Assembly (NCBI GenBank): GCA_023265175.1
Contig: JAHFUI010000003.1
Span: 1 to 59,725 of the forward strand
Direction: 5' to 3'
DNA length: 59,725 nt
DNA from: Acidobacteriota bacterium
GTDB lineage: Bacteria > Acidobacteriota > Vicinamibacteria > Vicinamibacterales > CAVVIG01
Shown: piece by piece, positions 12,967-54,639 of the stretch
Layout of the letters: the number at the start of each line of letters is the position of its first letter
Position numbering within the stretch: position 1 is the stretch's first letter
The notes under the pieces: generated by a model
The model's database searches: none
The model's input: only the letters and a program-made list of their open reading frames with translations
Told to the model about the DNA's origin: nothing
Made by a program: the position numbers and the translations under genes

Positions 12967-13011
12967 GCTCCTAGAAGCGTGTCTGAGTAACCGGAACACG
13001 CTCCTAGTAGG
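12967..13011 (+). repeat. REP/BIME-like hairpin unit A (CCTAGAAGC-stem-loop GAGTAA-stem-GCTCCTAGTAGG)
   Basis: 7-bp stem AGCGTGT/ACACGCT with a 13-nt loop. It is homologous to the inverted unit at 13064-13107. Confidence 0.6.
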
Positions 13012-13063
13012 CCGGCTTCGCCGGCGAAAAAGCCAATGATGGAACGGACGCGCGCGCAGCGCG

Positions 13064-13107
13064 CCTACTAGGAGCCCGTTTCGGCATTACTCGGACGGGC
13101 TCCTAGG
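13064..13107 (-). repeat. REP/BIME-like hairpin unit B (inverted copy of unit A)
   Basis: 9-bp stem GGAGCCCGT/ACGGGCTCC. It shares the same 12-nt tail GCTCCTAGTAGG and the GAGTAA loop core. It overlaps the VWA gene stop codon. Confidence 0.6.
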
Positions 13108-14163: not shown

Positions 14164-15609
14164 ATGCGGTGCCTAGCTGTCTGCCAGGACGAGCTGGTGA
14201 TCGGGATGCTCAACGAGATCCTGCTCCCCGGATTCGAAGTCGAATTCATTGTCGAAGGCCGGCCGGTCGCGAGGCGCCTCCATGACGCCGGCGTCAACGT
14301 GGTGGCTGGCGATCCCCGCCGCGCCGACACCTACGTCAAAGCCGATCTCGGCCCCAGCACCTGCGTCATCATCGAAGACAATGCCCGCCGCAGTCTGAAA
14401 AAGATCCTCGAAGCGGTCCGCGACGCCGGCGGGACGCTCGTGTACGTGCTGGGCATCGGCGCGACCGCGACGGCCAGGCGCGCGGAGGAGCTGCACACCG
14501 ACTTCCCTGACGTCTCGTACCTGGCGATGTCGGAGCTGTTCGGTGGGCCGCTGCTGACCGAGCTCAGTCGATCGCTGACCCGCGCGCGCGTCCAGCAGTA
14601 TCAGCGATATCTCAGCGACGCCGATCGCGTCCTGATCATGCTCCACAACGATCCGGACCCGGACGCGATGGCGAGCGGATTGGCGCTCAGAAACATTCTC
14701 CGCCGCACGAAAGCGACAGCCATCATCGGCACGATCCAGGGCGTCACACGGCCGGAAAACCTTCGGATGGTCAACCTCCTCGACATCCACGTGGAGGCCG
14801 TCACGCCGGAATCGCTCAAGGAGTACGACCGCATCGCGATGGTCGACGTGCAGCCGAACTATTTCGGCGGCCTCATCGACCGCGTGGATCTCGTCATCGA
14901 CCATCATCCCGAACAACCGGGCTACACCGCCATCTTCAAGGACATCCGCGCCGATTACGGGTCGACCTCCACCATCCTCACCGAGCACCTCCGCGCGGTC
15001 GACGTGAACATCTCGGAGCGAACCGCCACCGCGATGCTCTACGCGATCAAGTCCGACACGCTGTTCTTCAGCCGCCACACCAATCGCGTCGACCTCGAGG
15101 CGTTCTCGTACCTCTATCCGCTCGCGGACGCCGCGCTCATCCGGAAGATGGAAGGCGCGGAAATCACCCTCGAGCGCCTGGAATATGTGCTGAAGGCGCA
15201 CCGCGGCGGGACCCTGACCGGGCAGGTGTTCTGCGCCTTCCTCGGTCCTTCTCCCCGGGAGGATTTCATTCCGTACGTGGCCGATTTCTTTCTGCAGGTC
15301 GAGGACGTCAAATGGACGGTCGTCGCCGGCATCGTAAAGGATCTGCTGGTGATCTCAGTCCGCAACCTCGGTTACTCGAAGAACGCCGGTGAGTTCGTGC
15401 GGCGGTTCTTCGCCGACATCGGCAGCGCGGGCGGCCATCGTGCGATGGCCAAGGCGGTCGTGCCCGTCCAACGATTCCGTGACAAGTTCGGCGATCTGGA
15501 GGGCGGCGATGTCACGGCGCGGCTGCACGAGCTCGTGGCGCAATTCCTCCACGACACCAAAGAAGTTAAGAGTCAAAAGTTAGAAGGCAAAAGTGAAGTC
15601 GCCTCATAA
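14164..15609 (+). CDS. DHH family phosphoesterase (NrnA-like DHH/DHHA1) with extra N-terminal Rossmann-like domain
   Basis: Motifs HNDPDPDAMAS, VDVQPN, LVIDHHPE and GSAGGHRAMA (DHHA1 GGH). The last 14 codons lie in the AT-rich terminator repeat. Confidence 0.8.
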   Translation: MRCLAVCQDELVIGMLNEILLPGFEVEFIVEGRPVARRLHDAGVNVVAGDPRRADTYVKADLGPSTCVIIEDNARRSLKKILEAVRDAGGTLVYVLGIGATATARRAEELHTDFPDVSYLAMSELFGGPLLTELSRSLTRARVQQYQRYLSDADRVLIMLHNDPDPDAMASGLALRNILRRTKATAIIGTIQGVTRPENLRMVNLLDIHVEAVTPESLKEYDRIAMVDVQPNYFGGLIDRVDLVIDHHPEQPGYTAIFKDIRADYGSTSTILTEHLRAVDVNISERTATAMLYAIKSDTLFFSRHTNRVDLEAFSYLYPLADAALIRKMEGAEITLERLEYVLKAHRGGTLTGQVFCAFLGPSPREDFIPYVADFFLQVEDVKWTVVAGIVKDLLVISVRNLGYSKNAGEFVRRFFADIGSAGGHRAMAKAVVPVQRFRDKFGDLEGGDVTARLHELVAQFLHDTKEVKSQKLEGKSEVAS

Positions 15610-15642
15610 CTTTCAACTTTTGACTTTTGCCTTTTAACTTTC
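15563..15642. terminator. AT-rich bidirectional hairpin between convergent DHH and patatin-like genes
   Basis: The left arm AAGTTAAGAGTCAAAAGTTAGAAGGCAAAAGTGAAGT pairs with the right arm AACTTTCAACTTTTGACTTTTGCCTTTTAACTT through three 7-bp helices (CAAAAGT/ACTTTTG twice, AAGTTAA/TTAACTT). It contains T-runs and overlaps both stop codons. Confidence 0.6.
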
Positions 15643-17232
15643 TATCTGTCCGACCCGCTCGCCGCTCGCGCCGACGATCGGCTCGATGAACTGGCGGTAC
15701 GCGTCCTCGTAGCCGCGCGCCATCAGCTCCTCGAGCGGCTGCACCCGGTCCGAGCGGTCGTCGAACGCCCCGGCGAAGTCAAACGGCCCGATGGGATTAT
15801 GGGCTGGCCGAATCGGAAAGATGCGCACGGATCTACGAACCGCCGCGCGCGTCGCGTCGCGAACCGCGGCGGCCTCCGCTGACTGAAGGTATTGACCAAA
15901 TCGTCCGCGGCCGTCGAGCCGCGGCGGTGACAGCGCGTGCGGTCCGTGCGCCTCCGGCGCCGCAGACACCAGCAGCACCTGCCCGGCCCCAAGCTGCGTG
16001 ACCTCTTCGATCACGCGCGCCACACTCGCCGGCCTGTCGCACACCCGATGCGTTTCACCACGCCAGAACGCATCCGCGGCAAACCGCACCGCGCCCGGTT
16101 CGCTCGCGACGGGAATGGCCAGGGCCCCGGCGACGATGTCCGGCAGATAGTCGCGCGCGACGCCAGACAAATCGAAGACCTCGGCTCGACGCTCCTCGGC
16201 CTCGGCGAGCGTCGTGCCTGGCCCGCCATGAAGGGCGTGCCCTGCAGTCGACTGTAGGGGACGGTCTTCCGCCTCCGCGTAAAGCTTCGGCGGACCGCCG
16301 TAGTCTTGGCGGAGGCGGTCAGACCGTCCCGCAGCCCGACGGTAGAGATCCCGGCGCCGCGACTCCGGCACCAGTGTGAAGATCAGGTCGCGATGCGCGT
16401 CCAGATCGTGAACCGCCAGGACCAGTTCCCGAAAACCCGGCTGGCCCAGGTTCTCACCGACAAGTTCGATGAACCGCCGACCCAGCTCAATGGGCGTCGG
16501 CTCCTTCAACTGCGCCGCGCCGCGCAGCAGATCCCACATCACGCTCCAACAATAATGCGCCGCTTGCGCCGACGACAGCGGCGGCCGCAGGATGCGCCAC
16601 CACCACGGTCCCCGATGCCGCCGGATGTCGCGACTCGCCGACCCACTCACAAAGGCCATGACACCGACTAGTCCGAGCACGAGCACGACGAGCCGCGGAA
16701 GCCACGTCGGAAGCGCCTCGGCCGCGAACGCGGTCTGTGTGAACCGGGAATACGCGCCGATTAGATTCCCTGCGCCGCCCAATCCCATCATCTTCAACAG
16801 GAAATCAATCGGATACACGACAAGTCCGAGCGCGATCGCGCCAATGGGGATCGCGACGATGGCGATCGACAGGGCCACCGCCCAAGCAAAGATGCGCAGC
16901 ATCGTCCGCCAGGGATAGAGGTTGCGTATCGCGGGTGAGGACCAGAAACCCTTCTCGTCCCACAACCGCTGCGCCCCGTCACAGGCCGCAAATAACGCGC
17001 CCACCACGCCGATGCCGTGACCGGCGACGATGTCAATTTTCACGCCGGCTTCGTGCAACGCACGGAGCACGCCTGCGTGGTACGCACCGGCAGTACCGGT
17101 ACCGGTCAAGACGAGGGCCGTGCGGAGTTGCGGAGAGTACGGTTCGGCGAGCGCGTGCGAGGCAGATTCGGGGTCGCCGGCGCCGAGGTGCTGGCGGGCC
17201 TCCGCGGCTGAAGCCGAAGGCGGGTCCATCAT
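15634..17232 (-). CDS. patatin-like phospholipase family membrane protein with degenerate catalytic motifs
   Basis: An N-terminal patatin block LVLTGTGTAGAYHAGVLRALHEAGVKIDIVAGHGIGVVGALFAA is followed by about four TM helices and a long C-terminal region. Confidence 0.65.
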   Translation of the reverse strand: MMDPPSASAAEARQHLGAGDPESASHALAEPYSPQLRTALVLTGTGTAGAYHAGVLRALHEAGVKIDIVAGHGIGVVGALFAACDGAQRLWDEKGFWSSPAIRNLYPWRTMLRIFAWAVALSIAIVAIPIGAIALGLVVYPIDFLLKMMGLGGAGNLIGAYSRFTQTAFAAEALPTWLPRLVVLVLGLVGVMAFVSGSASRDIRRHRGPWWWRILRPPLSSAQAAHYCWSVMWDLLRGAAQLKEPTPIELGRRFIELVGENLGQPGFRELVLAVHDLDAHRDLIFTLVPESRRRDLYRRAAGRSDRLRQDYGGPPKLYAEAEDRPLQSTAGHALHGGPGTTLAEAEERRAEVFDLSGVARDYLPDIVAGALAIPVASEPGAVRFAADAFWRGETHRVCDRPASVARVIEEVTQLGAGQVLLVSAAPEAHGPHALSPPRLDGRGRFGQYLQSAEAAAVRDATRAAVRRSVRIFPIRPAHNPIGPFDFAGAFDDRSDRVQPLEELMARGYEDAYRQFIEPIVGASGERVGQIES

Positions 17233-17702: not shown

Positions 17703-17796
17703 CGTCTCGATGACCCAACGTCACTCGTAAGGAGCGGGCCTGATCGTACCACAGTGTTATCCTTCGGAGGTCTGGGCACGAACGTCCAGCGCTGAG

Positions 17797-17885
17797 TCAC
17801 CACAAAGGACACAATGGGCACCAAGGCTCGGGCCTGTTTCCCGTACACGTTTGAGCCCTTGTGTCCTTCGAGTCCATTGTGGTGA
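17797..17885. promoter_or_regulatory. imperfect hairpin in the greA/trmH-family divergent region built from ..CACAA words
   Basis: TCACCACAA and AGGACACAA (17797-17814) pair with TTGTGTCCT and TTGTGGTGA (17859-17885). Confidence 0.4.
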
Positions 17886-17905
17886 TTCAGCGTTCGTCCC
17901 GGGCG

Positions 17906-20222: not shown

Positions 20223-20393
20223 CTACGACCGACCGACGACGCGCGTCAAACCCCAGCCTGCCAGAAACACGGCGACTCCGACGCCGAACAACCGTGAATT
20301 CGGTCCGAGCGGACCTGCCGTGACGACGTCGACCAGCAGAATCCACATACCGACGATCTGTCCGAAGCGACCGAGGTAATACAGCGCGCGCAT
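20223..20393 (-). CDS. small (56-aa) two-TM membrane protein, unknown family
   Basis: Hand translation gives MRALYYLGRFGQIVGMWILLVDVVTAGPLGPNSRLFGVGVAVFLAGWGLTRVVGRS. It is below the ORF-track size cut-off, has high GC3, and its ATG abuts octamer element 1. Confidence 0.4.
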   Translation of the reverse strand: MRALYYLGRFGQIVGMWILLVDVVTAGPLGPNSRLFGVGVAVFLAGWGLTRVVGRS

Positions 20394-20523
20394 CTGGTTA
20401 TCTGGTTATCTGGTTATTTGGTTATTTGGTTATTTGGTTATTTGGTTATTGATTGTTCAATTGATCAACAGATGACCGCCTCACCAGATAACCAGATAAC
20501 CAAATAACCAGACAACCAGATAA
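20394..20523. repeat. octamer-array palindromic element, copy 1 (7 + 5 units of TGGTTAT(C/T))
   Basis: (CTGGTTAT)x3 (TTGGTTAT)x4, a 34-nt spacer beginning TGATTG, then CCAGATAA CCAGATAA CCAAATAA CCAGACAA CCAGATAA. It fills the mutL-stop to small-ORF-ATG gap exactly. Confidence 0.9.
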
Positions 20524-22233
20524 CTACATCCGCTCGAAGTTCTTTTCGATCTCGCGGCGCGTCAACCGCAGCATCACCGGTCGTCCGTGCGGGCAGACGG
20601 TGGAGTAGGCGGTCGCCCTGAGCTCGTCGAGGATGTGCGTCATCTTCTCGTATGTGAGCGGATAGTTCGCCTTGACCGCCCCGTGACACGCCGTCGTCGC
20701 CGCAATCCTCCGCAACGCTTCCTGCACCTGTGCGCCTTTGTCCAGGCCTTCGAGGTCTTCGGCCAGGGCCAGCAGCGCGTTCGAGCTGTCTTCCGTTTTC
20801 AGCAACGCCGGCACCGCCGAGACTTTGATCGTTCCCTCGCCGAAGCCGTCGATCTCGAACCCCAGCCGCTCGAGCTCGGATGCGCGGCCGACCAGCGCCT
20901 GGTGCGCGGACGGCGCGACCTCGATGACGAGCGGCACGAGGAGCCGTTGCGATTCGAGCGGTCCGGCGGCGAGCCGCTCCATCACGCGCTCGAACAGCAC
21001 CCGTTCGTGCGCGACGTGCTGATCGATGATCGCCACACCCTCATCGTCGATGGCGATGATGAAGGTGTCGCGAAATTGCCCGAGCGGAATCATCGGGCGG
21101 ATGTCGGACGAACGCGTATCGGACGTGTGCGAATCGTAGGTGGGAGGCATCCAACGATTGGGGTACGCACCGCCGCCGAGGACGCCGGGAATCGACATCG
21201 CGACCGGTGATTGAGACTCGATCTCCGGACGCAATTGCAACTGCGGGACGCCGCCGTGCCCGAGCGCATCCATCAGCGCTCGACGCACGACCTCATGAAC
21301 GAGCGACTGGTCGCGGAAGCGTACCTCCGCTTTCGTGGGGTGAACGTTGACATCGACGGCGTCCGGCGGCATCTCGATGAACAGATGCACTTCCGGGCTT
21401 CGTTCCTTGATCGACGCGACGCTGTAGGAGTCGATGATCGCGTGCGCGATCGTCCGGTCCTTGACGATGCGGCGGTTGATGAAGACGTTCTGAGGTCCGC
21501 GGGTGGGGCCGTGCTCCGCCAGCGCCGCGATGCAGCCGGACACGCGCAGGCCGCCGGCATCTTTTCTCACCTCGATCAAATCGATGCGCTCGCCGTACAC
21601 CTGATACAACCGATCGTGCAACGACGCCGCGGGAGGACACTCGATCACCTTCCGGCCGCCGCTGGTCAACGTGAAGCCGACCTCGGGATGGGCCAGCGAC
21701 AGCTGCGTGACGATCCGCGACACCTGCGCGGACTCCGCGCTGTCGGATTTGAGGAATTTTCGCCGCGCCGGAAGGTTGTAAAACAGATCGTCGACCTGGA
21801 CGACCGTGCCTTTGGCCATCCCGACTTCGACGACGGATGTCACCGCGCCGCCGTTGACCCGGATTTCGGTGCCGCTGTCCTGGGCCTGCACGCGCGATCG
21901 CAGGAGGAAGTGCGAGACCGACGCGATCGACGGCAGCGCCTCGCCCCGAAACCCCAGCGTCGTGATCGCGGCCAGATCGCCGGCGCGCCGGATCTTGCTC
22001 GTCGCATGCCGCTCGATGGCCAGCCGCACGTCGGCGGGGTCCATCCCCTCGCCGTCATCTTCGACCCGGACCTGCTTCTTGCCGCCCAGCTCGACGTGAA
22101 TTGTGAGCCGGCGGGCGCCGGCGTCGATCGCGTTCTCGGCGAGTTCCTTGACCACCGACGCCGGCCGCTCCACGACCTCGCCGGCCGCTATCTGGTTCGC
22201 GAGATCCGGCGCTAAACGGCTGATTCGACCCAC
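20524..22233 (-). CDS. mutL: DNA mismatch repair protein MutL
   Basis: IAAGEVVERPASVVKELAENAIDAG...VEDDGEGM is the GHKL ATPase signature. A C-terminal CPHGRP motif is present. Confidence 0.95.
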   Translation of the reverse strand: MGRISRLAPDLANQIAAGEVVERPASVVKELAENAIDAGARRLTIHVELGGKKQVRVEDDGEGMDPADVRLAIERHATSKIRRAGDLAAITTLGFRGEALPSIASVSHFLLRSRVQAQDSGTEIRVNGGAVTSVVEVGMAKGTVVQVDDLFYNLPARRKFLKSDSAESAQVSRIVTQLSLAHPEVGFTLTSGGRKVIECPPAASLHDRLYQVYGERIDLIEVRKDAGGLRVSGCIAALAEHGPTRGPQNVFINRRIVKDRTIAHAIIDSYSVASIKERSPEVHLFIEMPPDAVDVNVHPTKAEVRFRDQSLVHEVVRRALMDALGHGGVPQLQLRPEIESQSPVAMSIPGVLGGGAYPNRWMPPTYDSHTSDTRSSDIRPMIPLGQFRDTFIIAIDDEGVAIIDQHVAHERVLFERVMERLAAGPLESQRLLVPLVIEVAPSAHQALVGRASELERLGFEIDGFGEGTIKVSAVPALLKTEDSSNALLALAEDLEGLDKGAQVQEALRRIAATTACHGAVKANYPLTYEKMTHILDELRATAYSTVCPHGRPVMLRLTRREIEKNFERM

Positions 22234-22358
22234 AGTCCCTTACCTACACCGAAAGGCACTTGGCTTGACGATCCGCAACGGGGCCGGTGGAAACCACACA
22301 GGCGGTCACTCGAACCCCCAGTCCCGCTGCGGAGCGTCAAGGCAAGTGCCCATCAGAA

Positions 22359-29423: not shown

Positions 29424-30099
29424 ACTGCTCTCTCCTGATTTCCCTGAGCACGCGCGCCGACTTGAGATCCTTCTCCAAGTGCATCGAGATGAGCGCGCGA
29501 TGCGCCGCCTCGATCTCGCGCAAGGCGCCGTTCGACACGGTCAGCCGTCCCAGCGTGAACGGACTGCACGTGCGCGCCGAGACCAGAAACGTCTTTGCGT
29601 CTGCCGAGATCCGGTCGTCGACCTCGTACACGCCCTGCAACCGGAGCAGCCAGTACTCGAAATAGCGCGCGAGGCGCTCGATCGGCACGCCCTCGGCGAT
29701 CGCCTCCACCATCGACGCGCCCAACCGGAACAGCGGCTCGTTCGGGTCGGCTTCCTGCGCCCATTCGTCGATCAGCTCGGCGAAATAGCCGACGTAGCCG
29801 AGCGCATCGCCATCGACCGCCGACATCGGGGATCGCGTCTGCTCGACGTAATCGACCCGGACCAGATCGCGCCGTTCGCGCTCGACGTACGTGATGCGGC
29901 CGCACGTGAGCGGCTCGAGCGCGCCACCGAAACGCCGCCGGCTCTGGCGCGCGTTCTTGGCCACACCGCGCTTCTTGCCGCGATCGCTCGTCAGAAAGAC
30001 GACGATGCGGTCGGACTCACCGAGCTTGTAGCAGCGGAGAATCAACGCGTCGGTGGTATACAGCGGCATGCGGAGGGCAGACTCATCACCGTACCACAT
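29419..30099 (-). CDS. recO: DNA repair protein RecO
   Basis: TDALILRCYKLGESDRIVVFLTSDRGKKRGVAKNAR is the RecO OB-fold block. The true start may be the second Met at 30069. Confidence 0.85.
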   Translation of the reverse strand: MWYGDESALRMPLYTTDALILRCYKLGESDRIVVFLTSDRGKKRGVAKNARQSRRRFGGALEPLTCGRITYVERERRDLVRVDYVEQTRSPMSAVDGDALGYVGYFAELIDEWAQEADPNEPLFRLGASMVEAIAEGVPIERLARYFEYWLLRLQGVYEVDDRISADAKTFLVSARTCSPFTLGRLTVSNGALREIEAAHRALISMHLEKDLKSARVLREIRREQC

Positions 30100-30187
30100 C
30101 TGGTCATTTGGTTATCTGGTTATCTGGTTATCTGGTCATTGATTGATCCAAATGACTAGATAACCAGATGACCAGATGTCCAAATTC
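30100..30187. repeat. octamer-array palindromic element, copy 2 (5 + 5 units)
   Basis: CTGGTCAT TTGGTTAT CTGGTTAT CTGGTTAT CTGGTCAT, loop TGATTGATCCAA, then ATGACTAG ATAACCAG ATGACCAG ATGTCCAA. It lies between the era stop and the recO ATG. Confidence 0.9.
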
Positions 30188-31094
30188 AGGAGTCGGTGCG
30201 GTTCATGCCGATCTCGCCCAGCACGCGCTCGTCCTCGCGCCACTCGGATTTCACGCGGACGTGGAGATCGAGAAACACCCGGGTCCCGAAGAATCGCTCG
30301 AGCTCTTCGCGCGCCGCCGTGCCGATCCGCTTGATCATCTCGCCGCCCTTGCCAATCACAATCGGTTTCTGGGATTCGCGGTCGACGACAATCGTGCAAT
30401 ACAGGCGCATGATGGGCGACTTGGCGTCAGGATCCTCGGATGCTTCTTCGAAACGATCGATGATGACGGCGCTCGAAAACGGAATCTCGGCGTGCGTGAA
30501 CTGGAGCAGCTTTTCACGGACGATCTCAGCCGCAAAGAACCGTTCGGGCTGATCGGTAAGGTAGTCGTCCGGGTACAACCGCTCGCCCTCGGGCAGCCGA
30601 TCGATGATGGCCCGCTCCAGGCGGTCCACGTTGTCGCCCGTCGCCGCCGAAATCGGCACGATCTCCGCGAAGTCGGCGAGCTTCGAGTACTCGTCCATCA
30701 TCGGCAGCAGCCGCGACTTCCGGATCAGATCGATCTTGTTGAGAATCAAAAAGACCGGCGCAGCGGCGTTCTTCACCAGATCGAGCATGAAGTCGTCGCC
30801 CTTGCCGCGACGCTCGCTCGCATCCACCACCAGGCCAAGCAGGTCGACTTCGCGAATGGTATCGACCGCCGTGTTGACCATCCGCACGTTCATCCTGTGC
30901 AACGGGCGGTGAATGCCGGGCGTATCGAGAAAGACCACCTGCGCGTCCGGATAATTGCGCACGCCAAGAATCCTCGTCCTCGTCGTCTGCGGCTTGTCCG
31001 AGACGATGGCCAGCTTCGTTCCGACAAGACGATTGAGCAGCGTCGACTTGCCAGCATTGGGCCGGCCGATGAGCGAAACGAAGCCAGACTTCAT
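30186..31094 (-). CDS. era: GTPase Era
   Basis: G1 GRPNAGKST, G3 DTPG, G4 NKID and a C-terminal KH domain. Confidence 0.95.
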   Translation of the reverse strand: MKSGFVSLIGRPNAGKSTLLNRLVGTKLAIVSDKPQTTRTRILGVRNYPDAQVVFLDTPGIHRPLHRMNVRMVNTAVDTIREVDLLGLVVDASERRGKGDDFMLDLVKNAAAPVFLILNKIDLIRKSRLLPMMDEYSKLADFAEIVPISAATGDNVDRLERAIIDRLPEGERLYPDDYLTDQPERFFAAEIVREKLLQFTHAEIPFSSAVIIDRFEEASEDPDAKSPIMRLYCTIVVDRESQKPIVIGKGGEMIKRIGTAAREELERFFGTRVFLDLHVRVKSEWREDERVLGEIGMNRTDS

Positions 31095-32378: not shown

Positions 32379-33064
32379 TTTTTACTCGCGCGGGGCCCCA
32401 CCCCCGCGCGCTGGCCGAGCTTCGCTTTCCCTCGGCCTCGAGCGTAGACTCTCGGCCTCGAGTGACTGTGAGCCGGCCCCACCCGCGCGCGCCGGCCGGG
32501 CTTCGCTCCCCCTCGGCCTCGAGCGTAGACTCTCGGCCCCGGGTGACTGTGATCCTTCGCTGCGGCCCGCTCGATCAAGCCTTCCCGCAGGCCGCCCTTG
32601 CGGCGCAGTCGCTGCTCGAGCCGTTGCATACGTCCGTGATCGCGCTCGTGATCGTAGCCAGCCAGATGGAGAAGACCATGTAGTGCCAGGACGCGAAGCT
32701 CGGTGCGCTCCGAATGGCCGGCCACGCGGGCCTGGCGCCTCGCTACGCCTCGCGCGATGACGATGTCTCCCAGAAAGAGGCTGGAGGCTGGGGACTTGGG
32801 ACCGGAGGACTCTCCTGCCGGGAATGACAACACATCGGTCGCGTAGTCGCGATGGCGGTAGCGACGATTGAGCGCGCGGATCCGCGCGTCGCTGATCATC
32901 GCGATACTCACCGTTCCGGCCACGCCGCCAGGCGCGACGCTCGCCAGCCAGCGCGCCAGGCCGGGCGCAGCCACCGCCCGTCCTCGCTCGTCGCCGACGA
33001 CCACTCGAAGCGCCACGGGGCCGCGTGGCCCGACACGCTCACGGCGTTGTCGTTCAGGATCCAT
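32375..33064 (-). CDS. ybeY: rRNA maturation RNase YbeY with an approximately 60-aa repeat-derived C-terminal extension
   Basis: The zinc motif ALHGLLHLAGYDHE is present. The ORF continues through two 81-nt tandem repeats and ends in an ATGA overlap with the next gene. Confidence 0.85.
   Translation of the reverse strand: MDPERQRRERVGPRGPVALRVVVGDERGRAVAAPGLARWLASVAPGGVAGTVSIAMISDARIRALNRRYRHRDYATDVLSFPAGESSGPKSPASSLFLGDIVIARGVARRQARVAGHSERTELRVLALHGLLHLAGYDHERDHGRMQRLEQRLRRKGGLREGLIERAAAKDHSHPGPRVYARGRGGAKPGRRARVGPAHSHSRPRVYARGRGKAKLGQRAGVGPRASKK
32392..32553. repeat. tandem 81-nt repeat x2 (GGGGCCCCACCC... family)
   Basis: Units 32392-32472 and 32473-32553 match at 71/81 positions by hand alignment without gaps. 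A related copy lies at 51375-51455. Confidence 0.85.
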
Positions 33065-49201: not shown

Positions 49202-49959
49202 ATGACGCGCGCCTCTTCGCGAAGCCGTCGAACCAGTTCCTTTGCGGCGTCGGCGGCCGAACCGTCGATGAGCTGCGTTTTCTTGGTTTTCTCAGGCACA
49301 TAGAGCCCGGCGATCTTCTGCGTGCGCGCCGACAGTGAAGAAGGCGTGACCTTCCGAATCTCTTTTTTCTTCGCCGCCATGATGCCCTTGAGCGTCGCAT
49401 AGCGGAGCTGATTGATGCCGCTTTGGATCGCCAGGACCGCCGGCATCGGCATCGTGACCCACTGAAACCAGCCGCCTTCGAGCTCGCGCTTCACACGCAC
49501 CGATGAGGTCTCGACGACGACTTCCATGATGATCGTCGCGTGCGGGAGACCGAGCCGCTCTGCCAGTACGACGCCCGTCTGCCCGAAGCCCTGGTCGTCT
49601 GACTGGAGACCCGTGAGGATGATGTCGAAGCGCTCCACCGTCATCGCCCCGGCAAGCGCCTCGGCGACGACGAACGCGTCGGCACTGGCGAGCGCTTCGT
49701 CTTCGACGTGGATGGCGCGATCGGCGCCGCGGGCGAGCGCTTCGCGGAGCACCTGCGCGACCCGCGCGGGACCGGCCGAGCAGACGACGACCTCGCCGCC
49801 GTGTTTCTCCTTGAGGCGCAGCGCCTCCTCGAGCGCGTAGGCGTCGGGCTCGTTCATTTCGTGGCTGGCGTCCGACTCACGGATCCAGGTTTTCGTCTCG
49901 TCGAGGCGCGGTTGCCAGTCTCTGGTGGGAACTTGCTTGAGGCAGACGGCAATCTTCAT
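49198..49959 (-). CDS. etfB: electron transfer flavoprotein subunit beta
   Basis: MKIAVCLKQVP...NEPDAYALEEALRLKE is the typical ETF-beta N-terminus. Confidence 0.9.
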
Positions 49960-50087
49960 TTGGTTATCTGGTTATCTGGTTATCTGGTTATTTGGCGACT
50001 TGGCGATTTGGTCATCTGGCGGGACGCGACATACCAATCAATAACCAGACAAATAACCAGAGAACCAAATGACCAGATAACCAAATA
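49960..50087. repeat. octamer-array palindromic element, copy 3 (8 + 5 units, core inverted)
   Basis: TTGGTTAT (CTGGTTAT)x3 TTGGCGAC TTGGCGAT TTGGTCAT CTGGCGGG ... CCAATCA ATAACCAG acaa ATAACCAG AGAACCAA ATGACCAG ATAACCAA. It lies between the fabF stop and the etfB ATG. Confidence 0.9.
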
Positions 50088-51338
50088 TCATGCGTTGCTG
50101 TCGTACCTCTTGAAGAGCAACGCGGCATTGGTGCCGCCGAAGCCGAACGAGTTCGAGAGCGCGTACTCGATGGCGATCGTGCGCTTGGCGTTCGGCACGT
50201 AGTCGAGGTCGCACTCGGGATCCGGTTGGTCCAGGTTAATCGTCGGCGGCACCATCTGATGATGCACCGCCAGCACCGTGATGCCGGCTTCGAGGCCTCC
50301 GGCGGCGCCGAGAAGATGCCCCGTCATCGATTTGGTCGAGGAGACGGCGACCTTCTTCGCGTGCTCTCCGAAGCAGCGCTTGATCGCGATGGTCTCGACC
50401 TTGTCGCCGTGCGGCGTTGACGTGCCGTGCGCGTTGATGTACGCCACCCGATCGGGACGAATGCCGCCGCTCTTGAGCGCCGTGCCCATGACTCGGAACG
50501 GGCCGTCGCCGTCCTCGGAGGGCGCGGTGATGTGATACGCATCCGCCGACATGCCGTAGCCGACCAGCTCGGCATAGATCCGCGCGCCCCGGCGGCGGGC
50601 CAGCTCGTATTCCTCAAGAATCAGCACGCCGGCACCTTCGCCGACGACGAAGCCGTCGCGATCCTTGTCGAAGGGGCGGCTCGCCCGCTGCGGTTCGTCG
50701 TTGCGCGTCGAGAGCGCGCGCATCGCGCCGAAGCCGCCGATGCCCATCGGCGTGATGGCCGCTTCCGAGCCGCCGGCAATCATCACGTCGGCGGCGTCGC
50801 GCCGGATGATTTCGAAGGCATCGCCGATGGCATGGGCGGAGGCAGAACAGGCGGTGCAGGTCGCCGAGTTGGGTCCGCGCGCGCCAAACCGGATCGAGAC
50901 CTGGCCGGCCGCCAGGTTGATGATCGCCGAGGGAATGAAGAAAGGTGAGATCTTGTGCGGCCCGCCTTCGAGCAGCGCCTTATGCTCCCGTTCGATCGTG
51001 GTGAACCCGCCGATGCCGGATGCAATGAACACCCCGACGCGCGGGCCCAGCTCCCGCGTCACCACCAGGCTGGCATCGTCGACGGCGAACTGCGAGGCCG
51101 CAATCGCGTACTGGATGAAGACGTCCATCTTCTTGACGTCTTTCTTCTCGACGAAGCGCAGCGGATCGAATCCTTTGACCTCGCCCGCGATCTGGGTCGA
51201 GAAGGCCGATGCGTCGAACTTGGTAATCGTGCCGACGCCGCATTGCCCGGCCGTGAGCGCCCGCCAGTTGGCATCGGTACCGATCCCGAGCGGCGACACC
51301 AATCCGATGCCCGTGACGACGACTCGCCTGTTCACCAT
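50088..51338 (-). CDS. fabF: beta-ketoacyl-ACP synthase II
   Basis: MVNRRVVVTGIGLVSPLG and the active-site block ATCTACSASAHAIG are present. The ORF is 416 aa. Confidence 0.95.
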   Translation of the reverse strand: MVNRRVVVTGIGLVSPLGIGTDANWRALTAGQCGVGTITKFDASAFSTQIAGEVKGFDPLRFVEKKDVKKMDVFIQYAIAASQFAVDDASLVVTRELGPRVGVFIASGIGGFTTIEREHKALLEGGPHKISPFFIPSAIINLAAGQVSIRFGARGPNSATCTACSASAHAIGDAFEIIRRDAADVMIAGGSEAAITPMGIGGFGAMRALSTRNDEPQRASRPFDKDRDGFVVGEGAGVLILEEYELARRRGARIYAELVGYGMSADAYHITAPSEDGDGPFRVMGTALKSGGIRPDRVAYINAHGTSTPHGDKVETIAIKRCFGEHAKKVAVSSTKSMTGHLLGAAGGLEAGITVLAVHHQMVPPTINLDQPDPECDLDYVPNAKRTIAIEYALSNSFGFGGTNAALLFKRYDSNA

Positions 51339-52463: not shown

Positions 52464-52605
52464 TTGGTTATCTGGTTATCTGGTTATCTCGTTATCTGGT
52501 TATCTGGTTATCTGGTTATCTCGTTATCTGGTTATCTGGTCATTGATTGAGACATTGGTCAGCAAATAACCAAATAACCAGATAACGAGATAACCAGATT
52601 TAGCC
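52464..52605. repeat. octamer-array palindromic element, copy 4 (10 + 4 units, 32-nt higher-order repeat)
   Basis: TTGGTTAT CTGGTTAT CTGGTTAT CTCGTTAT (CTGGTTAT)x3 CTCGTTAT CTGGTTAT CTGGTCAT, then TGATTGAGACATTGGTCAGCA, then ATAACCAA ATAACCAG ATAACGAG ATAACCAG. Confidence 0.9.
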
Positions 52606-53530
52606 GTTGAATCAGAGGCGCGATCGCCTCGAGATCCTCCGGAGCACCAAAGCTCAATACGGTCGCGTCGCGATGAATCTTCCGTACCAATCCGGCCAAC
52701 ACCGAGCCAGGACCCACCTCAACATACGTTGTGACGCCTTCTGACGCAAGACGCCGGACGACCGCCTCCCACCGCACGGCCGATGACACCTGCGCGATGA
52801 GCGCCTCGACGGCGGCCTTCGCGTCGCGTTTGACCTCGGCGTCCACGTTGGCGACGATCGGCACACGCGGATCGCGTGTATCCACGGCACGCAGTTCAGG
52901 CGCCAGCCGGTCCGCTGCGGGTTGCATCAACGCGCAGTGGAAGGGTGCACTGACCGGCAGCGGCACGACGCGCCTGGCGCCCAAGGCCTTGGCACGGTCG
53001 CCCGCGCGCGTCACGGCGTCGCGCGTGCCGGCAATCACCACCTGCCCGCCACCGTTCAAGTTCGCCGGGCTGACGACCTCGCCCTGCGCCGCCTCCTCGC
53101 ATGCCTGCGCAACCTGGCCGGCGTCCAGGCCGAGGATGGCGGCCATGGCGCCCGCGCCCACGGGCACCGCCTCCTGCATGTACCGGCCACGCCGCCGCAC
53201 CAGCCGTAACGCATCAGCAAAAGAAAACGTGCCGGCGGCGACGTTGGCCGAGTATTCCCCGAGCGAATGCCCGGCGACGAAGCCCGGCATGATGCGCCGC
53301 GACGCCAGCAGACGGTACGCGGCGATGCTGACCGCAAGAATTGCGGGTTGGGTGTTTTCGGTCAGGGTGAGTTGGTCGTCCGGACCTTCGAAGCAGAGCC
53401 TGCTGAGCGGTTCGCCGAGCGCCGCGTCAGCTTCGGCGAATGTGTCGCGACAGACCGGGAAGGCGTCGGCGAGCGCCTTCCCCATGCCGACTTTCTGCGA
53501 CGCCTGCCCGGGGAAGATGAACGCGATCAA
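52559..53530 (-). CDS. fabD: ACP S-malonyltransferase FabD, with the last ~12 codons encoded by octamer element 4
   Basis: IAFIFPGQASQ and the GHSLGEYSA active site are present. The TTG start at 53528-53530 overlaps the plsX stop. The C-terminus ..LIQRLNLVISLSGYLVIC reads through the repeat arm. Confidence 0.9.
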   Translation of the reverse strand: MIAFIFPGQASQKVGMGKALADAFPVCRDTFAEADAALGEPLSRLCFEGPDDQLTLTENTQPAILAVSIAAYRLLASRRIMPGFVAGHSLGEYSANVAAGTFSFADALRLVRRRGRYMQEAVPVGAGAMAAILGLDAGQVAQACEEAAQGEVVSPANLNGGGQVVIAGTRDAVTRAGDRAKALGARRVVPLPVSAPFHCALMQPAADRLAPELRAVDTRDPRVPIVANVDAEVKRDAKAAVEALIAQVSSAVRWEAVVRRLASEGVTTYVEVGPGSVLAGLVRKIHRDATVLSFGAPEDLEAIAPLIQRLNLVISLSGYLVIC

Positions 53531-54537: not shown

Positions 54538-54627
54538 GCTCGGTGCTCCAGTGCTGGTGCTCAGTGCTCGGTGCTGGTGCTCGGACCAGCACGGAGCCGA
54601 AGCACCCAGCACGAAGCACTCAGCACT
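54538..54627. repeat. imperfect palindrome built from GCT(C/G)(N)GT words filling the rpmF-plsX spacer
   Basis: Left arm: GCTCGGT GCTCCAGT GCTGGT GCTCAGT GCTCGGT GCTGGT GCTCGG. Right arm: ACCAGC ACGGAGC CGAAGC ACCCAGC ACGAAGC ACTCAGC. Confidence 0.7.
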
Positions 54628-54639
54628 CAACAAGAATCG

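Follow-up and report, generated by a model that had tools for sequence, protein, structure and literature searches.

A palindrome of tandem octamers at an acidobacterial mutL junction: probable copy of a dispersed, non-coding repeat family

Introduction

In a 59,725-nt stretch of an Acidobacteriota genome (contig JAHFUI010000003.1, positions 1 to 59,725; hereafter the window, meaning the whole stretch that was analysed), a 130-nt palindrome of YTGGTTAT/ATAACCAR octamers (20394-20523, hereafter copy 1) occupies the entire junction between mutL and a small open reading frame (ORF). What kind of sequence fills the space between two genes so exactly? Tandem arrays of 7-9-nt units beside bacterial genes have been catalogued since 1990, as short tandemly repeated repetitive sequences (STRR), long simple sequence repeats (LSSR), and TAACTGA and GGGAATC arrays, and their origin and function are unsettled. 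An earlier reading of the sequence (the original prediction) took the palindrome for the archetype of a four-copy family and listed four possible roles: an RNA hairpin, a protein-binding array, a slippage-prone spacer, or a non-autonomous mobile element. The last of these fits best. We consider it probable that the palindrome is an expanded copy of a dispersed, non-coding, non-autonomous DNA repeat that resembles MITEs (miniature inverted-repeat transposable elements) and REPINs (hairpin-forming doublets of repetitive extragenic palindromic, or REP, sequences), with slippage-prone tandem-octamer arms and with stop and start triplets at its ends. The same prediction named STRR and REP/MITE palindromes as analogues, which was reasonable; its statement that the repeat could not be assigned to a described class was too strong, given the arrays of Rehm et al. 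2015 (PMC4692102) and MacGregor 2015 (PMC4679880). Since intergenic 7-9-nt tandem arrays, including inverted pairs in Xanthomonas, have already been described, this is a new family or a variant of a described but unexplained class, not a new kind of element.

Octamer Arrays of the Window

On the + strand, positions 20391-20526 read CAT, (CTGGTTAT)3, (TTGGTTAT)4, a 34-nt spacer TGATTG...CCTCA, five ATAACCAR-type octamers and CTA; the CAT (20391-20393) is the start of the small ORF on the minus strand and the CTA (20524-20526) is the mutL stop. On re-reading, this architecture of octamers with reverse-complement arms was as the original prediction had described it, and the further octamer arrays that it listed at 30100-30187, 49960-50087 and 52464-52605 are present. 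The elements, their parts and the adjoining small ORF are the following.

20223..20393, minus strand: ORF of a 56-aa small membrane protein, conserved in relatives' loci; its ATG adjoins copy 1
20394..20449, minus strand: copy 1, ATG-proximal, slippage-prone arm of seven octamers, (ATAACCAR)7 in mRNA sense; one unit fewer in L331
20450..20483, minus strand: copy 1, centre with TGATTG inner repeat and loop (TGATTGTTCAATTGATCAACAGATGACCGCCTCA), from sequence reading
20484..20523, minus strand: copy 1, stop-proximal arm of five octamers, (YUGGUUAU)5 in mRNA sense, from sequence and folding
20524..20529, minus strand: mutL last codon and stop, ATG TAG (ATC TAG in L330), resembling a variant terminal unit ATC-TGG-TTAT
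30097..30188, minus strand: copy 2, era/recO, near-canonical 5+4 units, termini CAT... and ...AATTCA, from sequence, folding and Pfam
49957..50090, minus strand: copy 3, fabF/etfB, with an ATGA on either side (ATGA...ATGA) and in the opposite orientation to copies 1, 2 and 4; orthologues in L190, L193, L295 and L286
52461..52602, minus strand: copy 4, in the fabD 3' end ahead of fabG, 10+4 units (canonical 4+4 in L196), from sequence, Pfam and relatives

Tandem Repeats Finder (TRF) gave the arms of the window copies a period of 8 with 4.2-9.5 copies per arm, in keeping with LSSR/STRR-type arrays, which consist of at least three head-to-tail copies of a 5-11-nt unit. The exact octamer YTGGTTAT occurs 31 times in the window, all within the four clusters, vs 0.43 +/- 0.66 expected. 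In the window copies two convergent arrays are able to pair as a stem-loop, with loops of 16-34 nt, and the predicted folding energies of copies 1-4 are -70.2, -45.0, -59.9 and -62.6 kcal/mol (z = -12.1, -6.3, -8.1 and -11.9 vs shuffled sequence). The orientation of the elements is independent of that of the genes, copy 3 being opposite to copies 1, 2 and 4. The motif ATTGATTGTTC(A/G)ATTGA in the centre of copy 1 recurs in the L190 element, though at a different locus, and the sequence "cgg ATC TAG TTAT" of L330 makes the last codon and stop of MutL look like a variant terminal unit. A covariance-model search of the window against Rfam at gathering scores gave no match to a catalogued RNA family, a possibility that the original prediction had raised; neither a terminator-like site (GC-rich hairpin plus U-run) in a terminator scan nor any site in a promoter scan of the window coincides with a copy.

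A Bounded 84-bp Family

The family was defined by a 22-nt signature of arm plus core, for which about 0.5 chance matches are expected by our own calculation. It was found at 53 loci, all in Acidobacteriota, which supports a repeat family rather than a one-off; about 45 of these loci, in place of the four copies first proposed, come from one related metagenome-assembled genome (MAG), CAVVNL01, that is about 80% identical to the window. Among 171 loci fetched by protein homology, the signature appeared only in the window's species and in L190. The family is restricted to a narrow Vicinamibacteria-like clade of soil Acidobacteriota, and a burst in one genome has produced dozens of copies there. 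The bare octamer is not diagnostic: (YTGGTTAT)3 is present in at least 105 loci across phyla, mostly Bacteroidota, some of them as two-armed hairpins. Among those loci (L001-L105, especially L057, L042, L045 and L077), a Metamycoplasmataceae contig carries more than 60 units, and outer arms of TTGGTTAT occur in long hairpins of Chitinophaga and Saprospiraceae.

The canonical element is about 84 bp long and reads (TGA)ATY-(TGGTYATC)x4-TGATTG-short loop-CAATCA-(ATRACCAG)x4-RAT(TCA), the same on both strands; in 65 elements the modal length is 84 bp and the modal unit count 4+4. Copy 1 (7+5) and copy 4 (10+4) are expanded derivatives of this canonical element, so that copy 1 is not the archetype. 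The TGATTG core that had been taken to orient the element is present, as one half of a TGATTG...CAATCA inner repeat that is symmetric in canonical copies. Twelve 84-bp copies from unrelated loci have a mean identity of 88.5% (arms and core 90%, loop 63%, flanks 46%), and canonical copies at unrelated loci also agree in the order of their TTAT and TCAT unit variants. Such identity at loci with unrelated flanks indicates that the copies were made from a master sequence and did not grow independently. Small, non-coding and multicopy, with terminal inverted repeats (TIRs), the family agrees with classical, DDE-transposase-derived MITEs in these features. No target-site duplication (TSD), which flanks each copy of a classical MITE, was found at boundary offsets 0-7 in 43 copies, a test in which the invariant terminal AT cannot be told from TIR.

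The termini themselves account for the flush position of the copies between genes. Family ends carry an invariant ATY preceded by A or C at position -4 and read TGAATY or CATY; a stop triplet (TGA, TAA or TAG) adjoins 26 of 86 ends (30%) vs 2% background. The original prediction had read these triplets as gene signals. Coding-like ORFs use 9/25 stop-type ends and 6/23 CAT-type (ATG) ends, about a third, and since the triplets are mostly unused by genes they belong to the element's own consensus. This consensus spells TGA or TAA at one end and, at the opposite end, CAT, which is ATG on the other strand; a copy can therefore provide the stop upstream and the start downstream, or fuse with them. 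In CAVVNL01 the copies lie at 21 co-directional, 7 convergent and 4 divergent junctions, close to the background mix of junction types; the claimed preference for co-directional stop/start junctions is not seen, and by the prediction's own standard this weakens the reading of the palindrome as an intercistronic device. A neighbouring ORF runs into the element in 9 of 52 copies.

Filled and Empty Junctions

Comparison of orthologous junctions, which had been proposed as a check, revealed empty ATGA sites in relatives and no target duplication. The fabF/etfB junction is empty (gcATGAag) in L107, L109 and L186 and filled (gcATGA[element]ATGAag) in the window, L190 and L193. At the mutL/small-ORF junction the element is absent from L198, which has an ATGA overlap, and from L229, where the small ORF directly follows TGA. 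The empty forms in relatives are a 4-nt ATGA overlap, TGATG, or "taggaggattgaatg". Copies arrive at sites that are empty in relatives, typically zero-length ATGA/TGATG junctions or a gene's last codons, and leave no target-site duplication. The ATGA...ATGA around copy 3 was considered as a target duplication and is explained by the element's TGA.../...AT termini meeting the ATGA overlap; being common to the orthologues, it marks a single event.

In other relatives, these junctions are filled by tandem-unit hairpins with other units, including AGCTGNN (L135), GGTTCT/AGAACC (L114), TGTGATT (L112) and AGAGGTTCC (L108). In a survey of 1.87 Mb of high-GC acidobacterial loci we counted 234 junction arrays, most often with period 7 (n = 108), followed by period 8 (n = 56) and period 9 (n = 45). 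A third of the arrays have an inverted partner, and they are spread across co-directional, convergent and divergent junctions in about background proportions. A unit is shared by 21.7% of same-genome junction pairs vs 3.8% of pairs between loci.

At fabF/etfB, the close relatives L193 and L190 carry the element at the same site with a similar loop and wholly different arm units (CGGTAATCG vs TGGTCAT), either because the arms were replaced or because both changed rapidly in concert. Several contigs used here are labelled Betaproteobacteria, Acidimicrobiia or Bifidobacterium (L106, L121, L200, L202 and L203) and share 75-85% protein identity and full synteny with the window; they are probably mis-binned MAG contigs.

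Unit Number and Pairing

The window and L196 are 99.9% identical, with 16 single-nucleotide polymorphisms (SNPs) in 18 kb, and differ by only two indels: L196 lacks 48 nt (six units) of copy 4 and 16 nt (two units) of copy 3, in each case from the ATG-proximal arm. In L331, copy 1 is one octamer shorter, again in the ATG-proximal arm, and all the unit-number changes seen fall in this longer and purer arm. That the spacer is prone to slippage, as first suggested, is borne out by these differences between near-identical strains. SNPs are about 10-fold enriched in the copy 1 element, by our own estimate from mismatch positions.

Over longer times it is the pairing that persists. Each of five orthologous fabF/etfB copies has 67-83% of its bases paired, and the compensatory unit changes among these orthologues include CTGGGTAT/ATACCCAG and CGGTAATCG/CGATTACCG; the palindrome is kept over long times through paired compensatory changes. 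As a test of constraint, the element identity of these five copies (59-66%, vs 52-58% at fourfold synonymous sites) is uninformative alone, and the conservation of pairing is the informative measure.

Gene Starts and Ends at the Elements

The terminal CCAR-ATG that had been read as the start of each downstream gene is the true start for copies 1 and 3 only. These two extend exactly from stop to true start, without a Shine-Dalgarno sequence (SD). The conserved RecO start (MPLYTTD, 30069-30067) lies 30 nt past copy 2, and the conserved FabG start (MFDL, 52450-52448) lies 13 nt past copy 4. Downstream of copy 4 the ancestral "cgg TGA tgtgccg ATG" is found (cf. L108); with copy 4 inserted upstream of this TGA-7nt-ATG, the fabD frame runs on into the element for 15 additional codons, and the fabD stop is now in the loop (52559-52561). 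In copy 2 the element's terminal TGAAT provides the era stop TGA. ORF ends are accordingly changed at 52559-52606 (FabD, the 15 codons read from copy 4) and at 30186-30200, where Era is about five codons longer at its end than in relatives; the element's ATG adds 10 N-terminal codons to the RecO ORF call (30070-30099). In practical terms, the elements break short-read assemblies and inflate or extend ORF calls (FabD by 15 aa, RecO by 10 aa, Era by about 5 aa), and they serve as hypervariable strain markers.

Spread, Tolerance and a Possible Link to PF05635

How might such an element move, and how would it be tolerated between essential genes? It would spread as DNA by a mechanism free of TSDs, for which hairpin-recognising enzymes of the HUH/RAYT type or a system associated with PF05635 are candidates. 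Copies would be co-transcribed with their operons, and by analogy with 23S-rRNA intervening sequences (IVSs) and Correia elements the 35-45-bp near-perfect RNA stem may be an RNase III substrate. The stem would draw stop and start codons together, letting translational coupling survive, and changes of unit number beside the ATG could incidentally adjust translation of the downstream gene.

PF05635, the "23S rRNA intervening-sequence protein" family, has had no explained function since 1993; we take this four-helix-bundle (S23p) protein to be homologous to the Avd protein of diversity-generating retroelements. The PF05635 gene is absent from the window. In L282 (3004-3501, from CAVVNL01), outer arms of the octamer family and TGATTG/CAATCA inner repeats surround about 400 nt; the enclosed segment is a frameshifted four-helix-bundle ORF with a weak PF05635 match, that is, an intervening-sequence-protein (IVP) pseudogene. 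Among the 53 signature loci this is the sole larger composite with the same TIRs, and it carries no transposase. In L280 (7150-7665), an intact PF05635 ORF (E = 7e-13) lies between (TGATTGA)n and (TCAATCA)n arrays. PF05635 homologues of Vicinamibacteria, Ca. Solibacter, Planctomycetota and Ignavibacteria likewise sit between operon genes, with inverted arrays of lineage-specific short units on both sides. In 69 metagenomic PF05635 loci, a flank test combining TRF with unit complementarity found a 7-, 8-, 14- or 16-nt array in 71% of the adjacent 220-nt flanks, 14% of distal segments and 4% of ORF-internal ones; of the 35 two-sided cases, 26 have a downstream unit that is the reverse complement of the upstream unit. 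The duplex energy of upstream-flank with downstream-flank RNA discriminated poorly (-110 vs -96 kcal/mol) and was rejected as a measure. The boundaries of the cassettes resemble those in the window: the stop of the upstream gene adjoins the first unit, the ORF's TGA opens the next array, and a complete ORF-less hairpin follows some cassettes. At E <= 0.1, Rfam gave no matches on five PF05635 loci, and we found no paper connecting tandem-unit arms with PF05635.

A single PF05635 locus recovered from eight samples (L425-L432) has an identical upstream region and ORF and a downstream (CCAATCA)n array of 4 to 9 copies, a variable-number tandem repeat. Vicinamibacteria-type cassettes at unrelated loci also carry a leader of about 65 nt (CCTGACCTCATGCnCGGTTAGACC...GGTTAAAAAnnGCGTAC) ahead of the left array, with no match in Rfam; it is located as follows.

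L280:7090-7160; L332:1030-1100; L333:1030-1100; upstream regions of L425-L434: conserved leader of about 65 nt

The same hairpin architecture flanks PF05635 genes across phyla and the L282 arms enclose a pseudogene, and for these reasons the 84-bp element is probably the ORF-less form of an IVS-like cassette. Much more tentatively, and with the odds in our judgement against it, tandem-unit hairpins in general could be ORF-less, non-autonomous partners of PF05635 cassettes, forming one widespread class of "intervening sequence" that colonises essential transcripts and depends on PF05635 for its spread. That the octamer family of the window belongs to such a class is an equally tentative suggestion; by extension the class would perhaps take in the STRR, LSSR, TAACTGA and GGGAATC heptamer arrays, with Cyanobacteria, Bacteroidota, Xanthomonas, Planctomycetota and Acidobacteriota perhaps among its hosts. 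The class would have colonised 23S rRNA in the classic cases and operon junctions here, and its elements would owe their tolerance to RNase III, which would remove or cut the stem, and to the stop and start codons carried at their ends. If the link to PF05635 holds, two old puzzles merge into one testable system, and it becomes explicable that non-coding DNA invades zero-length junctions or last codons (mutL, era, fabD, fabF) without killing the host.

Several points weigh against a mobile repeat or against its tie to PF05635. Neither a transposase nor any other gene for mobilisation was identified; a crude scan of the 53 loci for HUH/Y1 motifs, which is a weak test, was negative, and the window's genome was sampled over about 60 kb plus three short contigs. 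The sole well-resolved insertion, at fabF/etfB, is shared by several species and is one event; the unit-number differences come from short-read assemblies, although the arrays are shorter than k = 141. Upkeep of the palindrome could reflect selection for function and not templated homogenisation. The link between the family and PF05635 is drawn from one composite (L282), from a TGATTG/CAATCA motif common to both and from similar architecture, and the reverse relation, with cassettes targeting pre-existing hairpins, fits equally well.

Alternative Explanations

The alternative that survives best, although we think it unlikely, is a selected mRNA element, in which the hairpin couples upstream termination to downstream initiation or sets relative mRNA stability, and (AUAACCAR)n acts as an SD-free standby or enhancer site whose unit number tunes expression. 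It would account for the exact stop-to-true-start span of copies 1 and 3 with no SD, for the compensatory changes that keep the hairpin in five species, and for the confinement of every unit-number change to the ATG-proximal arm; one-armed arrays adjoin start codons in other Acidobacteriota, and MacGregor 2015 proposed a translational role for start-adjoining TAACTGA arrays. Against it, a test of G:U vs C:A mismatches on the tandem-unit hairpins gave no consistent mRNA-strand advantage, and for copies 1 and 2 the antisense strand has the better fold, by 10-12 kcal/mol; the G:T asymmetry of arm mismatches noted in the original prediction holds for these two copies, fails for the others, and points away from an mRNA structure. 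The family's convergent and divergent contexts occur at background frequency in CAVVNL01, its terminal ATG and stop triplets are mostly unused, copies 2 and 4 stop 30 and 13 nt short of the real starts, and the upstream ORF is extended by copy 4 and by 9/52 other copies. At acpP in L106 and L107 an SD is retained after the hairpin, relatives manage with empty junctions, and no Rfam family matches.

A second and still less likely possibility is that nothing moved, and that an LSSR/STRR-type array grew in place by polymerase slippage and fold-back template switching, with a genome-specific mutational or repair bias producing the shared unit. Whole-unit polymorphism, the genome-specific unit dialects (21.7% of same-genome pairs vs 3.8% between loci), and the prevalence of 7-mers, which matches published LSSR surveys, are all what such growth would give; neither TSD nor transposase is seen, and the arrays of Rehm et al. 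have no association with insertion sequences (IS). Growth in place does not predict that canonical copies with unrelated flanks share a non-repeat core, loop motifs, the order of unit variants and termini at 88.5% identity, nor the burst of copies in one genome, the intrinsic orientation of the element independent of the genes (copy 3 vs copies 1, 2 and 4), or the discrete insertion vs empty orthologous sites.

Very unlikely, in our view, is an array that acts as DNA, its TGGTYAT repeats being bound by a sequence-specific nucleoid-associated or regulatory protein. The unit is conserved, regularly spaced and genome-specific, and MacGregor suggested a repeat-binding protein as the mobile partner; against this, no candidate protein was found, the 8-bp spacing is out of step with the helical repeat, and units diverge while pairing persists, which argues that complementarity is constrained and not sequence. 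An assembly or sequencing artefact, to which tandem repeats and palindromes are prone in short-read data and which the original prediction allowed for, can be dismissed as an account of the elements' presence, since copies recur in four assemblies that were made independently from different samples and match the window at 99.6-99.9% identity (L196 for copies 3 and 4; L330, L331 and a third contig for copy 1), and orthologous copies exist in at least five species.

Comparison with Known Repeats

The nearest described arrays are the intergenic 7-nt GGGAATC arrays of Xanthomonas, which vary in unit number, lie near stops and starts, show no IS association, and form inverted, convergent pairs, of which each genome has about 70 (Rehm et al. 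2015, PMC4692102). Like the window family, these arrays and the GGGGAYT arrays of Nostoc consist of head-to-tail 7-8-nt units that for the most part separate aligned ORFs, no more than 50 bp from stops or starts; they sometimes overlap the stop, vary in unit number among close relatives, can form stem-loops as convergent pairs, and are unexplained in function. Unlike them, the window family is made of octamers without G-runs (TGGTYATC/ATRACCAG contains no GGG, and hence no G-tract of the kind G-quadruplexes need, whereas the G-tract heptamers have been read as G-quadruplex formers) and has a defined 84-bp element whose non-repeat core, loop and termini point to master copying. TAACTGA arrays adjoin start codons; strains differ by 7-nt indels in them, and relatives have empty sites (MacGregor 2015, PMC4679880). 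These direct repeats of Beggiatoaceae, Cyanobacteria and Bacteroidetes, together with LSSR and STRR, share with our family short units at starts where few canonical ribosome-binding sites occur, whole-unit indels between strains, shorter empty spacers in relatives, stop codons within units and a patchy distribution; they differ in being nearly all one-armed direct arrays (one indirect repeat is known in BOGUAY), with no bounded canonical element described.

Among mobile hairpins, REP/REPIN elements, which Bertels and Rainey are said to have shown in 2011 to be mobilised by RAYT transposases, are similar in forming extragenic, hairpin-forming inverted doublets of about 70-110 bp without TSD, with lineage-specific sequence, dozens to hundreds of copies and occupancy of orthologous sites over long times. 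A REP is in itself an imperfect palindrome, short and marked by a conserved 5' tetranucleotide, and that is absent here, where the arms are direct tandem octamers that are not self-complementary; a crude motif scan, confined to the fetched loci, found no RAYT (Y1 HUH) gene. Correia/NEMIS elements of Neisseria and ERIC/IRU elements of enterobacteria are MITEs co-transcribed in operons, small, non-coding inverted-repeat elements of transcribed intergenic regions that form RNA hairpins; RNase III cleaves Correia elements, and these affect the expression of neighbouring genes. They have ordinary non-tandem TIRs, and Correia elements a TA target duplication, unlike the TSD-free window family. LSSR are reportedly due to Mrazek in 2007, and the STRR of heterocystous cyanobacteria to Mazel in 1990.

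Classic 23S rRNA IVSs are bounded by terminal inverted repeats, contain an S23p ORF, are cut out by RNase III, and have been suspected of mobility since 1993 (Warrier et al. 2016, PMC4990558). They resemble our family in the long terminal-inverted-repeat stem, the suspected mobility, the tolerance in essential transcripts, and the PF05635 ORF in the loop of full-length relatives (L280, L282, L332-L434); the window copies differ in having no ORF and in lying at protein-gene boundaries rather than in 23S rRNA helix 25 or 45. No description of tandem-unit arms for IVSs was found in the accessible literature, a full-text search for the repeat sequence returned only an unrelated plant paper, and the literature on Acidobacteria simple sequence repeats and STRR unit sequences yielded nothing usable. 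Against this background the mutL locus offers an unusually clean view, combining a bounded 84-bp master, filled and empty orthologous sites, no target duplication, and termini that encode stop and start, and it also displays active whole-unit slippage between strains and long-term maintenance of the palindrome.

Other Features of the Window

The source is a Vicinamibacteria-like acidobacterium; its FabF has 85% identity to the best match. The Pfam results confirm mutL, era, recO, fabF, ETF-beta, fabG, fabD, plsX and rpmF in the window, and the gene order rpmF-plsX-fabD-fabG-acpP-fabF-etfB-etfA is kept in relatives; an exact-protein look-up of the window's RecO returned no record. The ybeY ORF has 229 aa, with the YbeY domain ending at about residue 153, and an 81-nt tandem duplication (91% match) in its 3' part (32394-32552) may be another junction filler that extends an ORF. 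Further hairpins of the window are the following.

54538..54629, minus strand: tandem-unit hairpin of GTGCTNN-type heptamers that exactly fills the junction between the rpmF stop and the plsX ATG, from TRF, folding and Pfam
15563..15641, no strand assigned: tandem-unit hairpin of AAGTTA../..TAACTT units between convergent ORFs, from TRF and folding
17788..17897, no strand assigned: 110-nt palindrome of CACAANGG-type units in a divergent intergenic region, from a palindrome scan

The rpmF/plsX hairpin has a predicted energy of -61.5 kcal/mol and is kept in L196 except for one SNP. The hairpin at 15563-15641 lies between ORFs 14164..15609 (+) and 15634..17232 (-) and overlaps the end of the + strand ORF. 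Long intergenic palindromes at 17788-17897, 22249-22356 and 12985-13090 have folding energies of -64, -70 and -58 kcal/mol (z = -8.2, -7.5 and -5.7), and the intergenic space of this genome is crowded with hairpins.

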